Shown here piece after piece: positions 19,469 to 28,909 of a stretch of 64,000 nt of DNA. This DNA comes from a virus. The first letter of the stretch is position 1. Every line of letters begins with the position of its first letter. The notes under the pieces are model-generated. The model ran no database searches. It saw nothing but the letters and a program-made list of their open reading frames with translations, and was not told the origin of the DNA. The stretch spans positions 67,615-131,614 of the IMG/VR virus record IMGVR_UViG_3300020391_000004; one strand, written 5' to 3'. Made by a program: the position numbers and the translations under genes.

Positions 19469-19562
19469 AAAAAAAAATCCATAAGCCTTCTAATACGGAG
19501 TTATTAGTTGACTTATGGATTATCCATTTCGTATCCCCGAATACTTAATGAATTCTAATTAT
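19469..19562 (-). ncRNA. candidate ~94-nt sRNA or attenuator
   Basis: Own TTGACT-N17-TATAAT promoter; ends in a 10-bp + 6-bp hairpin followed by U8; no credible ORF. Confidence 0.6.
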
Positions 19563-19568
19563 AAAAAC

Positions 19569-19597
19569 ATTATAGTGTATTTAGAGGATAAAGTCAA
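19569..19597 (-). promoter_or_regulatory. sigma70-type promoter TTGACT-N17-TATAAT
   Basis: Read directly. Confidence 0.8.
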
Positions 19598-19632
19598 CCT
19601 TTATGTAAAGATAATTTACATATTACCTTACA

Positions 19633-19845
19633 TTAGATAAGCATAGGTAACTTGGGCCATGGCGTATTGATGCCGTTCTTATGATCCAAGTAAGTCATAA
19701 CTAATTCTAATTCAAATGACTCATTCATTGCTAAAAAATCAATTAAAGCATCAAAGCCAATTGCACCTTCAAAAATAAAGTCATCTACAGGATTATCCTG
19801 TATAAACATTTCAGCCGCTGTGCGGTAAGTTTCATTTGAAAACAT
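19633..19845 (-). CDS. hypothetical early protein
   Basis: AGGAGAGA RBS; acidic 70 aa. Confidence 0.65.
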   Translation of the reverse strand: MFSNETYRTAAEMFIQDNPVDDFIFEGAIGFDALIDFLAMNESFELELVMTYLDHKNGINTPWPKLPMLI

Positions 19846-19853
19846 ATTCTCTC

Positions 19854-20093
19854 CTATCTTAATTCTATACCTTCATCAAATAGTTTCCAGGCATCACCAT
19901 CTTTTTGAAATCCATATTCACTGGCAAAATCCATTGAACTACTATGACATAAATGTGGACCTATACCTTTTGTTTTTAATATGTAAGCAACCATTTTAGG
20001 TGTCTTAGCAAATCCAACACAATTACCAGCCCTTCCAGCAAAAAACTTTATACCTGATTCATCCGCTGCAATAAAATTAATTTTATTTTTCAT
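19854..20093 (-). CDS. hypothetical early protein (SSSMDFASEYGF)
   Basis: AGGAGAGA RBS; 79 aa. Confidence 0.7.
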   Translation of the reverse strand: MKNKINFIAADESGIKFFAGRAGNCVGFAKTPKMVAYILKTKGIGPHLCHSSSMDFASEYGFQKDGDAWKLFDEGIELR

Positions 20094-20104
20094 TTACTTC
20101 TCTC

Positions 20105-20392
20105 CTAGTTTCCGCCTAAGTTAAATTCATAATTAATATCTTTATAAAGTTTATCCATTATGTAATTACATTGTCCTGCAGTTTTAGCATTTAATAAAAT
20201 AGTTTTGCTTCTTTTAAGATTAGCAAGACATTCTTGGTGAATCTCGTTGTAAGGATCTCTTCTTACTCTCTGTGCTACTTTATTAATTTCATTTGGAAGA
20301 TAGTAGTAAGCATAAGTTGCTTTATACTTTGCAGTTGAATAATCTAAACCTTCTTTAACGAACTTATCTCTGGATCTACTTGAACAAATCAT
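20105..20392 (-). CDS. hypothetical early protein
   Basis: First gene after an early promoter; AGAGAGAGA RBS region. Confidence 0.65.
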   Translation of the reverse strand: MICSSRSRDKFVKEGLDYSTAKYKATYAYYYLPNEINKVAQRVRRDPYNEIHQECLANLKRSKTILLNAKTAGQCNYIMDKLYKDINYEFNLGGN

Positions 20393-20427
20393 TTATTTTC
20401 TCTCTCTTGTTTTCTAACTATGCTGTT

Positions 20428-20455
20428 ATAATAACATAATAATATGACTTGTCAA
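20428..20455 (-). promoter_or_regulatory. early promoter TTGACA-N16(TGT)-TATTAT
   Basis: Read directly. Confidence 0.85.
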
Positions 20456-20679
20456 CCCCCATTGCTCATTACTTTTAATAATTGTAATTCTTTTCCTGTA
20501 ATCTCCCTAAGGGTCAATCCTTTGCCTCCTGGGTCCATACTTTCATATTTTATAAGACAAGCACGGGCATGAATATCTTTCCAAATTTCTTTTTTACCAT
20601 CTGGCCAGGCAATCTCATAAGTACGTGGTGTTTTATCCCAACTTTTAGGAGCACCTTCTTTCATATAAGTTACAGTCAT
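20452..20679 (-). CDS. hypothetical protein
   Basis: 75-aa ORF coupled to the upstream gene. Confidence 0.6.
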   Translation of the reverse strand: MTVTYMKEGAPKSWDKTPRTYEIAWPDGKKEIWKDIHARACLIKYESMDPGGKGLTLREITGKELQLLKVMSNGG

Positions 20680-21101
20680 TATTTAAGATATATCCTGTTG
20701 CCTCTTAGTGCAAAAAATAAGCCTCCACAGTATAGCATTACATGGAAGTTATCATATAATAACACATCTACAAAACTTTCAGGCTCACCAATAAGAATTA
20801 CCCCTGTCATTATTCCACAAATAGTTACTCCACTAAAACGTGTAAGTAGGTCTCCTAATGTAGGTAATAATTTAGGAAAAATTAATATTGCACCAATAAT
20901 TAATCCTATGCCTGCAAATAATTCTCCCCAAACTACAAAGAACCATACTGTCATTGGTAATCCATAGCCTTCTGCATCTTCTATGTTTACCGGTAGCTTT
21001 GCTAGTCCTTGTAAAATAAAGACTATTGCTAATGGCATTCTTATTAATAAATTACTTCCTTTAAATTCAGGAATTTTATCTAAATAGTTTGAAATAGTCA
21101 T
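20679..21101 (-). CDS. DoxX family membrane protein
   Basis: LIRMPLAIVFILQGLAK...ELFAGIGLIIG...LTRFSG. Confidence 0.8.
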   Translation of the reverse strand: MTISNYLDKIPEFKGSNLLIRMPLAIVFILQGLAKLPVNIEDAEGYGLPMTVWFFVVWGELFAGIGLIIGAILIFPKLLPTLGDLLTRFSGVTICGIMTGVILIGEPESFVDVLLYDNFHVMLYCGGLFFALRGNRIYLK

Positions 21102-21430
21102 GAAATAAACCTATATAAAATTAAAAATAAAATACTTGTTAAACCTGCACTGCCTATTAGTGCAATCCAGAAATTAAAATAAAGAAAACCTGTAGCAAAT
21201 AAAGGGAAGAATATTAAACTAAGTCCAACAAAATAAACTGTTTGGTAACTAAATGTTTTAAATGTTTGATAATCAACTCCTGTATAATACATAATAATTA
21301 ATGTGACAAAACTTACCATAGGTATGCCCATTACAACTGCACCAAATGTTGCATTTTTTTGTGCTACGGTGCTAACTATTCCAATAATTAATCCGCCTAG
21401 CAATGCTTTCCAGATTATATCAAGATACAT
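21098..21430 (-). CDS. DUF3147/GlpM-like 4-TM protein
   Basis: KALLGGLIIGIVS...GAVVMGIPMVS hydrophobic pattern. Confidence 0.55.
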   Translation of the reverse strand: MYLDIIWKALLGGLIIGIVSTVAQKNATFGAVVMGIPMVSFVTLIIMYYTGVDYQTFKTFSYQTVYFVGLSLIFFPLFATGFLYFNFWIALIGSAGLTSILFLILYRFIS

Positions 21431-27381: not shown

Positions 27382-27548
27382 TATGTATACCTCGGATTTG
27401 GATTCTTCAAGCAGATCTTTGCTGCTAGAAGTCTTCTTTTTTCTTGGGGAGTATGAATAGCCGTAAACATACTCAGTGCTTTTACCATATTCTTAATTGC
27501 CCAGCTAGGCTGATTACCTATGATCTTCCATGCTTGAATAACTGACAT
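27381..27548 (-). CDS. 55-aa hypothetical protein
   Basis: Translated by hand; TAATG coupling on both sides. Confidence 0.7.
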   Translation of the reverse strand: MSVIQAWKIIGNQPSWAIKNMVKALSMFTAIHTPQEKRRLLAAKICLKNPNPRYT

Positions 27549-27910
27549 TATGCTATCTCCTGATCTTTACGCCATAAAACTTCTTTATAACCGATTCTAT
27601 CCACGAACCATAAACCTTCATTATCCTGTAGTACATCCCCAACGGATACACTGTGCATCTTTGTGCCTTCAACAGGAATGACTCTATCACTAGGACCAAT
27701 GTTACCTGCTTCAAAAGCATGGTCAATATCGTCTGCAACTATGTCAGCGACATGTGTATAACACTCATTAGCAATAGCTAAACGCGGATCACCATTCATA
27801 GCAGCCAATTTACTTTTGGCGGTTGAATGACAATCCCAACCTTCTGAATTAATTAAATCACTTAGGTGACGGTCAATAACAATCTGGTAAAGTTTAATCA
27901 TTTGCGGCAT
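27548..27910 (-). CDS. early protein with YodL-like SVSVGDV motif
   Basis: Start MPQMIK at 27910 with AGGAGAGA RBS; MHSVSVGDVL. Confidence 0.65.
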   Translation of the reverse strand: MPQMIKLYQIVIDRHLSDLINSEGWDCHSTAKSKLAAMNGDPRLAIANECYTHVADIVADDIDHAFEAGNIGPSDRVIPVEGTKMHSVSVGDVLQDNEGLWFVDRIGYKEVLWRKDQEIA

Positions 27911-27939
27911 ACATCTCTCCTTTGCTGTATTGTGCTTAC

Positions 27940-27967
27940 AGCATAACACATATATAGGATGTGTCAA
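27940..27967 (-). promoter_or_regulatory. early promoter TTGACA-N16(TGT)-TATGCT
   Basis: Read directly. Confidence 0.75.
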
Positions 27968-27989
27968 CCTGGTTGCGAATCTTTTTAAA

Positions 27990-28140
27990 CAATCAGTACC
28001 GCTTTCGCCTACGGTACCGGGAACAATCTAGTTTTCGGTCTATGGGTTCCCTGAGTAGTTCCTCACTTGTAAACCCCATACAGCTTCTCCCGCAGGTCCG
28101 TCACTGTATCCTAACCGTTACATTATCGCCGCATTGTATA
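27990..28140 (-). ncRNA. candidate multi-stem, pseudoknotted structured RNA
   Basis: GC-rich non-coding block with at least 5 complementary segments, a GAAA-capped stem and a G-U pair that favours the minus strand. Confidence 0.55.
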
Positions 28141-28167
28141 ATCCTTTAACATTGTTAACTACCATTT

Positions 28168-28545
28168 TTAAGCCGCCGCCTTAAACGCTGTCTGCACATA
28201 AGGCTTATTCCATTTACCTATATTAATATCATTATAGTAAGCAGTATGAAAGTAATCACTTTGATAATCTGATTTATCAAACCATTTAGTACCTTTCATA
28301 GCTGTAATTAATTCTAATAAAAACTGTCTAGCATCTCCTGAATACCAACTGTCTATATGATATACATTAACCTGTGTATAACCATCTCCATGTGAATGAT
28401 CGAACTCTATAGGACCTGATTGTATGTTAACAACCAAACTCATATGATGCTTAATAGCAATAGAACCTTTCATGCCATACTTCTTAAGTACTGCCTTAAT
28501 GCCAGGTGCTAGTTCTGCTTTATCTTTTTGACTTATATATGCCAT
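28168..28545 (-). CDS. conserved hypothetical early protein (SDYQSDYFH)
   Basis: AGGAGAGA RBS behind an early promoter; ends KAAA. Confidence 0.8.
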   Translation of the reverse strand: MAYISQKDKAELAPGIKAVLKKYGMKGSIAIKHHMSLVVNIQSGPIEFDHSHGDGYTQVNVYHIDSWYSGDARQFLLELITAMKGTKWFDKSDYQSDYFHTAYYNDINIGKWNKPYVQTAFKAAA

Positions 28546-28577
28546 GTAGTTCTCTCCTAAACTCTAATTATGTATAT

Positions 28578-28605
28578 ACTATAGCACACTATATGCTTTT
28601 GTCAA
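28578..28605 (-). promoter_or_regulatory. early promoter TTGACA-N16(TGC)-TATAGT
   Basis: Read directly. Confidence 0.8.
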
Positions 28606-28822
28606 CCCCTCGCATATCAGCATACTCTCTACGATAGCTGTGTATACGATCTTCAGTCTCCTTGTTAGCGAAGACTCCGACATCGTTCGCAGGATCGTAC
28701 TCTACATAACTACGGCGGTCATGTACTGGATGTACAAAGTCCGGCTTGCCCCATACCCGTACTGCTGATACATACTCTGTGCTGCGAAAGCCAAAGAAGT
28801 GTACTAGTCGTCCTCTATACAT
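28589..28822 (-). CDS. 77-aa hypothetical early protein (VHFFGFR...WGKPDFVH)
   Basis: Start at 28822 with AAGGAGG RBS; first gene of the early series. Confidence 0.7.
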   Translation of the reverse strand: MYRGRLVHFFGFRSTEYVSAVRVWGKPDFVHPVHDRRSYVEYDPANDVGVFANKETEDRIHSYRREYADMRGVDKSI

Positions 28823-28844
28823 AACCGCCTCCTTGTGTAGTGCA

Positions 28845-28909
28845 GCACTGTGCTGGTTAAACACAGTGCCTAGTCAATCGACTTCGGGGATACGATTACG
28901 GATTGACTA
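28845..28909 (-). promoter_or_regulatory. structured 5' leader with two hairpins
   Basis: 9-bp IR at 28871-79/28901-09 and 8-bp IR at 28845-52/28862-69, between promoter and RBS. Confidence 0.7.

Follow-up and report, generated by a model that had tools for sequence, protein, structure and literature searches.

A candidate small RNA encoded at 19.5 kb and the structured leader of the first early gene of the same phage contain a perfect 13-nt complementarity, which we tentatively interpret as a possible young, lineage-specific RNA-RNA interaction. Regulation of the first early operon by this pairing is plausible. Judged by the distribution of the two elements among related lineages, the small RNA is older than the leader site. 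A broader reading, which we regard as rather doubtful, is that these lineages capture a regulatory RNA pair as it first arose in an uncultured marine phage: an early RNA already in place would have gained control of the first early operon through a 70-nt insert carrying a perfect 13-nt loop complement, with sister lineages representing the states 'before' (RNA only) and 'after' (RNA and target). Control of a lytic phage's own early genes by a trans-acting small RNA is known to us from few phages, none of them an uncultured marine one. Were the pairing to function, these genomes would be natural 'before' and 'after' examples of small-RNA target gain by way of an inserted structured leader module. 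If it is coincidental, the result is narrower: a conserved small-RNA or attenuator module that is gained and lost as a cassette at a single hot spot in the early region. The window analysed here is a stretch of 64,000 nucleotides of viral DNA, and all positions refer to it.

The candidate small RNA and the first early leader

The 19.5-kb element is likely a phage gene for a ~94-nt small RNA, preceded by a sigma-70-type promoter of its own and ending in an intrinsic terminator. Its predicted fold (-27.5 kcal/mol, z=-4.05) was equalled in stability by none of 200 shuffles, and the terminator has an 18-bp interrupted stem followed by a U9 tail. The transcription start was inferred from the -10 box. 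A run of 117 nt (19576–19460) is invariant in comparison with lineages that are 5–12% diverged, while ~98 flanking intergenic nucleotides carry seven substitutions; this run is the tenth longest in a mosaic 15.9-kb alignment, in which 2.6% of 115-nt windows are free of differences. The small-RNA promoter of a sister lineage (lineage 2) retains both hexamers and has three substitutions in the spacer. There is no promoter between the terminator and the 57-aa gene, and this gene is thus transcribable only by read-through. Across the window, no Rfam family scored at its gathering threshold, and relaxing the cut-off to E values of up to 10 for 19400–19650 gave only four chance-level matches, none of them C4; a search for tRNAs also found none. 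The one metatranscriptome included (n=1) contains contigs identical to 20062–20421, 23292–23455, and 23703–23866, and none that spans the RNA or the leader.

The small RNA and the leader share a strand, and each closely follows a strong sigma-70-like promoter; the first early promoter belongs to a family of more than ten similar early promoters. The first early leader is the only long and structured one; all other early leaders are 20–35 nt in length and unstructured. The target site occupies leader nucleotides 14–26 and the Shine-Dalgarno sequence nucleotides 75–81, with the site upstream and a separation of 48 nt. Owing to this distance, the effect on expression is not readable from the folds. 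The leader fold varies with the transcript ends that are chosen, and the accessibility of the ribosome-binding site was rejected as a guide to the direction of regulation, as its outcome shifts with these ends.

Table 1. Features of the small-RNA locus and the first early region (window coordinates)
Feature	Position	Strand	Composition or basis
57-aa gene	19267..19440	-	28 nt downstream of the RNA's terminator
Candidate ~94-nt small RNA	19469..19562	-	hairpin 1, 19553-19522; terminator hairpin, 19521-19476; U9 tail, 19477-19469
UGGAU, 5-nt pairing extension	19522..19526	-	sequence and dimer fold
13-nt site in small RNA	19529..19541	-	apical loop CGGG and 3' half of upper stem
Small-RNA promoter	19569..19597	-	TTGACT, 17-nt spacer, TATAAT; 11/12 consensus matches (sigma-70-like)
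First early gene, 77 aa, no assigned function	28589..28822	-	cluster of 428 near-relatives in marine metagenomes
86-nt structured leader of first early gene	28823..28908	-	hairpin A arms, 28908-28901 and 28879-28872; hairpin B, 28870-28844; Shine-Dalgarno, 28834-28828
~69-70-nt insertion with both hairpins and target site	28839..28907	-	alignments; boundaries ambiguous by a few nt
13-nt target site in hairpin A loop of leader	28883..28895	-	sequence and fold; intact in ~7%-diverged lineage 4
AUCCG, partner of UGGAU	28899..28903	-	three of its bases in hairpin A stem
First early promoter	28915..28942	-	TTGACA, 16-nt spacer with TG, TATTAT; 11/12 consensus matches

Strength of the match and the case for chance

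As the original prediction stated, minus-strand 19541–19529 (UUCGGGGAUACGA) has its exact reverse complement at minus-strand 28895–28883. Both 13-mers are unique in the 131.6-kb genome, contain seven G/C, and are intergenic (spans 19441–19632 and 28823–29169). The proposed extension past a 2x3 internal loop, by UGGAU (19526–19522) with AUCCG (28903–28899), is likewise present in the dimer fold; its five pairs comprise four Watson-Crick pairs and one G-U. Both sites had also been described as centred on loops. This description is half correct: of the leader's two competing predicted folds, one places the 13-mer inside the 21-nt loop of the 5' hairpin, and in the predicted fold of the RNA CGGG alone is unpaired, a weak A/U-rich stem containing or adjoining the remaining nine nucleotides. 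The G/C core of the match occupies unpaired loop positions in the predicted folds of both partners.

The foremost alternative to pairing is coincidence, which we consider somewhat unlikely. The RNA or attenuator would then be real and act elsewhere (on the 57-aa gene, or on host or other mRNAs), the 13-nt match would have no regulatory effect, and the leader module would serve, for example, in 5'-end protection or as a protein-binding hairpin. Chance had originally been judged improbable, and shuffling yields a mixed answer: the strength of the helix is unusual, but the net folding energy is ordinary once the look-elsewhere effect is included. The pair was chosen after the whole window had been read. 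Inverted 13-mer repeats with at least seven G/C number five in the 64-kb window as compared to 1.1 expected, and such a repeat appears in 5.8% of shuffles of the intergenic DNA of the whole genome, frequencies that leave room for coincidence, as does the ~18% chance that a comparable 5-bp extension arises by itself. The pair is nonetheless the strongest intergenic inverted repeat of the genome, at -22.3 kcal/mol (next, -16.4 kcal/mol), and a helix of this energy has P=0.022 over all intergenic pairs (500 shuffles). With the RNA as a fixed query, P is 0.004 against the whole minus strand and <0.001 against leaders (0 of 1000 shuffles this stable). The leader site is the best RNA-to-transcript helix genome-wide by 8 kcal/mol (runner-up, -14.4 kcal/mol), and 1.2 Mb of related phage DNA holds no comparable helix (best, -18.9 kcal/mol; none at -20). 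These results speak against coincidence. So does the nature of the partners: they are the early region's two most RNA-like intergenic elements, each with the G/C core of the match in a predicted loop.

In the modelled dimer, the 13 positions have pairing probabilities of 0.46–1.0 (at least 0.93 for 12 of the 13), with a net energy of -12.3 to -13.0 kcal/mol. By net binding energy the first early leader ranks first of 183 (P=0.003–0.007 against that leader), but once all 183 leaders are allowed for, this energy is equalled by 9 of 13 plain and 5 of 24 structure-preserving shuffles (P ~0.2). The net value is ordinary because 9 of the 13 nucleotides are sequestered by the RNA's own hairpin, within or next to it, and this too favours coincidence. 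A scan for whole-length duplexes was dropped as a statistic, as it produced unrealistically long duplexes. Coincidence also accords with the distance of the site from the ribosome-binding site, and with the position of the 57-aa gene behind a terminator and without a promoter of its own.

Related lineages, a possible mechanism, and DNA-level explanations

The ~70-nt leader insertion occurs only in the lineage of the window and one ~7%-diverged sister (lineage 4), and is absent from lineage 2 and the other relatives. No source for it was found in the genome, the loci, or three public collections, viral contigs and reference genomes among them. Lineage 4 (92.9% identity) keeps the insert, the two stems, and the 13 + 5 nt, with changes only at unpaired or apical positions; retention of the 13-mer is uninformative at this divergence, with ~0.9 changes expected. 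A ~5%-diverged contig covering 28692–29006 was present in sequencing runs, and its equivalents were recovered (L122–L125). The RNA of lineage 2 (L070–L079) is base-for-base identical to that of the window, and its first early leader (L091, assigned to lineage 2 by 98.6% identity to L070/L071 over 6.2 kb) has the short ancestral form without the target site. No target site with two or fewer mismatches occurs in ~26 kb of lineage 2. The original prediction had named the retention of one site without the other among relatives as evidence against pairing; lineage 2 provides part of that pattern, and the perfect preservation of the RNA there is a comparative point for coincidence.

Both elements are present in the lineage of the window, both are absent from one relative (L080), and more distant relatives have neither. 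In 63 loci (600 kb) from relatives at 65–80% identity, the RNA, the leader insert, and the 13-mer all lack a homologue. Anchored-pattern scans returned one further, identical copy of the RNA and, for metagenome and viral contigs, no variant leader loops. Both 13-mers are constant in every copy found, so that the compensatory changes originally suggested as a check do not occur and there is no covariation. No contig of lineage 2 or lineage 4 joins the RNA locus to the leader. Public phage records contain no DNA match to either locus, and the closest terminase among them is only 52% identical.

Should the tentative pairing interpretation be right, a ~70-nt two-hairpin module would have been inserted into a formerly short first early leader in the lineage of the window and its ~7%-diverged sister, and the 21-nt loop of the module's 5' hairpin would present the complement to the tip of the RNA's hairpin 1. 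The G/C-rich loops CGGGG and CCCCG would nucleate a loop-loop contact, after which the weak A/U-rich stem of the RNA would melt. The duplex would then grow to 13 bp and, past the small internal loop, five pairs would open the base of the leader's 5'-terminal hairpin, altering how stable the first early transcript is or how well it is translated. The simultaneously made small RNA would in this way feed back on the first early operon. We lean slightly towards repression or destabilisation as the effect. Since the identical RNA persists in a sister lineage whose leader has no such site, the RNA must have another, older role, possibly on other targets, which may include host ones, or in attenuation of the downstream 57-aa gene.

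Explanations at the level of DNA together take up the probability left by pairing and coincidence. Recognition of the 13-mer as double-stranded DNA by a DNA-binding protein of the phage or its host, such as the MarR-like 185-aa protein (25358–25915), is improbable; the 13-mer would then act as an orientation-independent roadblock or operator, placed about +14 to +34 beyond two early promoters. The two identical copies do lie in opposite orientation, each 20–28 bp past a -10 box; the early region has a weak MarR-type match (E=0.0011, below Pfam's cut-off), and another lineage has a MarR-like gene at precisely the locus of the RNA. However, the 13-mer is nonpalindromic, the flanking symmetry differs between copies, and the distances to the promoters are unequal. 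No copy with one or two mismatches lies near the other early promoters (at least 10), the 13 other matches all have three mismatches and are scattered over the window, and lineage 2 would have one site only.

Common descent without function, by which ~20 nt of the RNA locus were copied inverted into the arising ~70-nt insert through template switching or patch repair and left the complementarity as a scar, is very improbable. The insert is young and without another identified source, and the similarity continues outside the 13-mer in interrupted form, with ATCC and then one or two bases preceding it. Against this, only ~20 of the 70 nt are derivable from the RNA locus, no second templated piece was found, and copying would have to move the loop of one hairpin exactly into that of another. 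That a DNA invertase flips the 9.3-kb early segment by crossing over at the inverted 13-mers has a negligible probability and was rejected: only the inverted orientation suggests it, the early genes would all become antisense to their first promoter after inversion, every contig of the lineage is colinear, and four metagenomic runs contain no strand-changing joint.

Comparison with known systems

The original prediction compared the pair to the C4 RNA of P1 and P4; with no Rfam match, the comparison stands as an analogy and not as membership. Like C4 (P1/P7 C4, P4 CI), the candidate would be a phage RNA of ~77–94 nt acting in trans through short, hairpin-presented complements on phage mRNA upstream of the regulated genes. 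C4 is cut from the same operon transcript that it controls, and its two short segments cover the icd ribosome-binding site as part of a temperate immunity circuit. The c4 RNA is a trans-acting repressor of Ant synthesis according to PMC8546580, which credits the processed 77-base RNA to Citron and Schuster 1992. The present RNA instead has its own promoter (19597–19569) and terminator, lies 9.3 kb downstream of its proposed target, and would pair through a single 13+5-nt segment, located 48 nt before the Shine-Dalgarno sequence, rather than over the ribosome-binding site. No lysogeny genes were found among the subset of genes scanned.

Cis-encoded kissing-loop RNAs (CopA/CopT of R1, RNA I/RNA II of ColE1, Sok/hok, and lambda OOP) resemble the proposed pair in G/C-rich loop-loop nucleation and in the spreading of the helix into weak stems, and a YUNR-like UUCG is found on the 5' side of the present RNA's loop. 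These RNAs are made from the opposite strand of their targets and are fully complementary to them, whereas the present partners are separate loci with only 13+5 nt matching.

With DsrA/RprA/ArcZ-rpoS, RydC-cfa, and SgrS-yigL, the candidate would share a promoter of its own, an intrinsic terminator with a U tail, and pairing far upstream of the ribosome-binding site. Those RNAs remodel leader structure or change RNase access; they are encoded on the chromosome, depend on Hfq, and are conserved jointly with their target sites. In contrast, the present target site is younger than the RNA, and seed and site are not conserved together.

DicF and IpeX are phage-encoded small RNAs that act on host mRNAs. 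The same is true of lambda LPR1/PreS (bioRxiv 10.1101/2024.10.31.621285). The proposed target here differs from theirs in being the phage's own first early operon. A host target of the present RNA would account for its retention in lineage 2, where the leader site is missing.

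Complementarity of the candidate small RNA and the first early leader

The 13-mer of the candidate small RNA at 19.5 kb and that of the leader of the first early gene (77 amino acids) match as perfect reverse complements, and neither occurs a second time in the genome. The additional UGGAU/AUCCG pairs beyond a 2 x 3 internal loop are present as well and recur in the predicted fold of the dimer, confirming the original observation. The 13-mer of the RNA lies at the tip of its hairpin 1; the terminator consists of an interrupted stem of 18 bp followed by nine U, and the fold has a z-score of −4.05. 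A search of Rfam returned nothing resembling the element.

Chance had been called unlikely partly from base composition, an argument that fails alone because 13-nt inverted repeats with at least seven G/C are expected about once per window (five seen versus 1.1 expected). Dinucleotide shuffling, proposed along with the original prediction, gave an answer that depends on the yardstick: by these calculations the perfect G/C-rich helix is unusual, whereas its predicted net affinity is ordinary. Such a repeat occurred in 5.8% of shuffles (9.7 kb of intergenic DNA, whole genome), and the helix stability of −22.3 kcal/mol was reached in 2.2% of shuffles of intergenic DNA, with the observed pair being the top among intergenic pairs, 6 kcal/mol ahead. 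When shuffled versions of the 94-nt RNA served as query, 0.4% reached −22.3 kcal/mol anywhere on the minus strand, and none of 1000 did so among leaders. The second-best site for the RNA in the real genome stands at −14.4, and the best helix with the RNA in the real DNA of related phages (1.2 Mb) at −18.9 kcal/mol.

Structure-aware folding of the RNA with the leader predicts a net energy of −12.3 to −13.0 kcal/mol with pair probabilities near 1, and places the first early leader first among 183 gene leaders. The corresponding P of 0.003–0.007 holds for this leader alone and is lost on look-elsewhere correction: when all 183 leaders compete, the top one equaled or exceeded the observed value for 9 of 13 plain shuffles, and for 5 of 24 when the RNA's own hairpin was kept intact. 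The net energy is ordinary because 9 of the 13 nucleotides need to be freed from within or beside the RNA's own stem.

Features of the window and of related contigs (L-numbers are contigs of relatives recovered from metagenomes)
Feature	Position or contigs	Strand	Description
Candidate small RNA	19562–19469	minus	~94 nt
Small-RNA promoter		minus	TTGACT, 17-nt spacer without TG, TATAAT; different subtype from the early family
13-mer in small RNA	19541–19529	minus	
13-mer in leader	28895–28883	minus	
Leader of first early gene	28908–28823	minus	two hairpins
Gap between 70- and 57-amino acid genes	19441–19632		cassette-exchange hot spot; small-RNA module in the window
Early promoter family	13926–28942	minus	more than 10 members; near-consensus TTGACA, 16-nt spacer ending in TG, TATTAT
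Early-gene stretches identical to marine metatranscriptome contigs	20062–20421, 23292–23455, 23703–23866		
Upstream segment	28990–29100	minus	G/C-rich, ~80 nt, contains GCTGGCGCTATATGCTGCCCCCACCC; kept in all syntenic lineages (L080–L085, L096, L122–L125)
Perfect palindrome	29325–29340		16 nt (CGTACTAGCTAGTACG), within the 226-amino acid gene; longest G/C-containing palindrome in the window
DNA with homologues at the L091 joint	31730–29620		243-amino acid gene, glycosyltransferase 61, 226-amino acid gene
L091 joint	L091: 7808–9920		54-amino acid gene joined directly to these homologues
Element, window's own lineage	L064–L069		at least 99.8% identical
Element, lineage 2	L070–L079		flanks 89–94% identical
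Element, third lineage	L101		95% identical to lineage 2, 92% to the window
Leader form 1, distant relatives	L041–L046, L086–L088		−10 box (TATACT) six bases before ATG
Leader form 2, closer syntenic relatives	L080–L085, L096, L116–L121, L099, L100, L091		same promoter, 16-nt leader
Leader form 3, window lineage and lineage 4	L064/L114, L065, L115; L122–L125		~70 extra nt

Distribution among relatives

The distribution of leader forms is the result that most alters the reading of the complementarity. The first early gene has many relatives, with leaders of three forms. In distant relatives the position of the −10 box implies that the mRNA of the homologue is probably leaderless. The window leader measures 86 nt, as against 16 nt in closer relatives; the ~70 extra nucleotides form both hairpins, carry the 13-mer, and occur only in the window lineage and in lineage 4 (92.9% identity). 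By parsimony, the long leader appears to be a recent insertion. Lineage 4 retains the 13-mer, AUCCG, and both stems intact, its three changes being located in one loop, one apical pair, and the linker; since ~0.9 changes are expected in 13 nt, the intact 13-mer says little.

Contigs with the element were recovered through the flanking 70-amino acid protein and fall into three lineages. L091, which has the short leader, is 98.6–98.7% identical over 6.2 kb to L070 and L071 of lineage 2. Lineage 2 therefore appears to combine an identical RNA with a target-free leader, the link being through overlapping contigs and not one molecule, and no target site with two or fewer mismatches was found in the ~26 kb of sequence available for this lineage. 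Relatives keeping one site without the other had been named as grounds against the original prediction, and lineage 2 presents this pattern. Its conservation of the RNA would require an additional, older function.

This distribution and the net-energy test both speak for coincidence, a 13-nt match without regulatory effect; set beside the unusual helix, we regard it as unlikely, though to be taken seriously. That the 13-mer is a double-stranded DNA operator is quite improbable: its copies are orientation-independent, sit at +14 to +34 relative to two promoters, and have a weak MarR-type match nearby, the 185-amino acid protein at 25358–25915, but it is not palindromic, its spacing to the two promoters differs, and no other copy with fewer than three mismatches occurs in the window, other early promoters included. 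A scar of templated copying at the origin of the leader insert is likewise improbable; the genome, the relatives' loci, and three public collections yielded no source for the inserted sequence. The 13-mers were rejected as invertase sites, the contigs of the window lineage being colinear and four metagenomic runs showing no inversion joints.

From the −10 box to just beyond the U tract, 117 nt are identical in all three element lineages except for U-tract length, and the ~98 adjoining intergenic nucleotides carry seven substitutions. This invariance favors constraint but not overwhelmingly, because divergence is mosaic: the run is only the 10th longest in the 15.9-kb alignment, where 2.6% of all 115-nt windows are without any difference. 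Comparison of the contigs indicates that the element acts as an exchangeable cassette. An open reading frame of ~71 amino acids replaces it in L001 and L080, a bare hairpin alone occupies the gap in L102–L107, and a MarR-like gene takes its place in L108–L113 (186–188 amino acids in L108–L110). The 57-amino acid gene begins 28 nt past the terminator without a promoter of its own, so the element could also be an attenuator.

Genome setting

The window makes up the final 64 kb of a 131.6-kb contig (positions 67615–131614). It has a G+C content of ~32%, and its genes include those for a long tail sheath, a tail tube, a helicase, and a T4-type large terminase; among public phage records the nearest terminase is just 52% identical. 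Near-identical DNA occurs in marine metagenomes of several studies. Three window proteins have identical counterparts on a metagenomic contig of 292,868 bp, so the 131.6-kb "genome" may represent less than half of a jumbo phage.

Minus-strand genes run from ~28.9 kb down to ~12 kb. Promoters of the early family are followed by short leaders of 20–35 nt with a TAATAATAATTAAAG-like start and a AGGAGAGA-type ribosome-binding site. Going by the metatranscriptome contigs, in situ expression of the early region is possible, DNA carry-over being the alternative. The G/C-rich segment ahead of the first early promoter, conserved while the promoter-proximal bases vary, might represent a structured RNA or a second promoter, or else the 5′ region of the divergent 226-amino acid gene. 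The DNA whose homologues occur at the L091 joint normally lies on the opposite side of the first early promoter, and the joint reflects either a chimeric assembly or a ~10-kb variant that is circular or carries a deletion.

Putative mechanism and known systems

Kissing-loop antisense control of the leader, the original interpretation, is partly supported. What the analysis shows is the base complementarity, the folds predicted for the two RNAs, and how the sites are distributed among lineages; the following model is our inference. CGGGG and CCCCG would nucleate a loop-loop contact, whereupon the A/U-rich upper stem of the RNA would melt and the duplex grow to 13+5 bp, unzipping the base of the 5′-terminal hairpin of the early mRNA. 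Opening of this hairpin could leave the 5′ end of the mRNA open to decay, and pairing could compete with another fold, one where this leader segment is bound to the start-codon region. Predictions for the ribosome-binding site reverse with the choice of transcript ends, so the model leans only weakly to repression.

The likeness to the C4 RNA of P1 and P4 failed at every testable defining feature: the element does not match the C4 covariance model or share the operon position of that antisense RNA, and its 13-nt target does not overlap a ribosome-binding site. Unlike cis-encoded antisense RNAs, the element is not cis-encoded, and unlike trans-encoded base-pairing sRNAs, whose anatomy it fits, its seed and target are not co-conserved. 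By analogy, the 19.5-kb element would work, if at all, like a phage antisense regulator.
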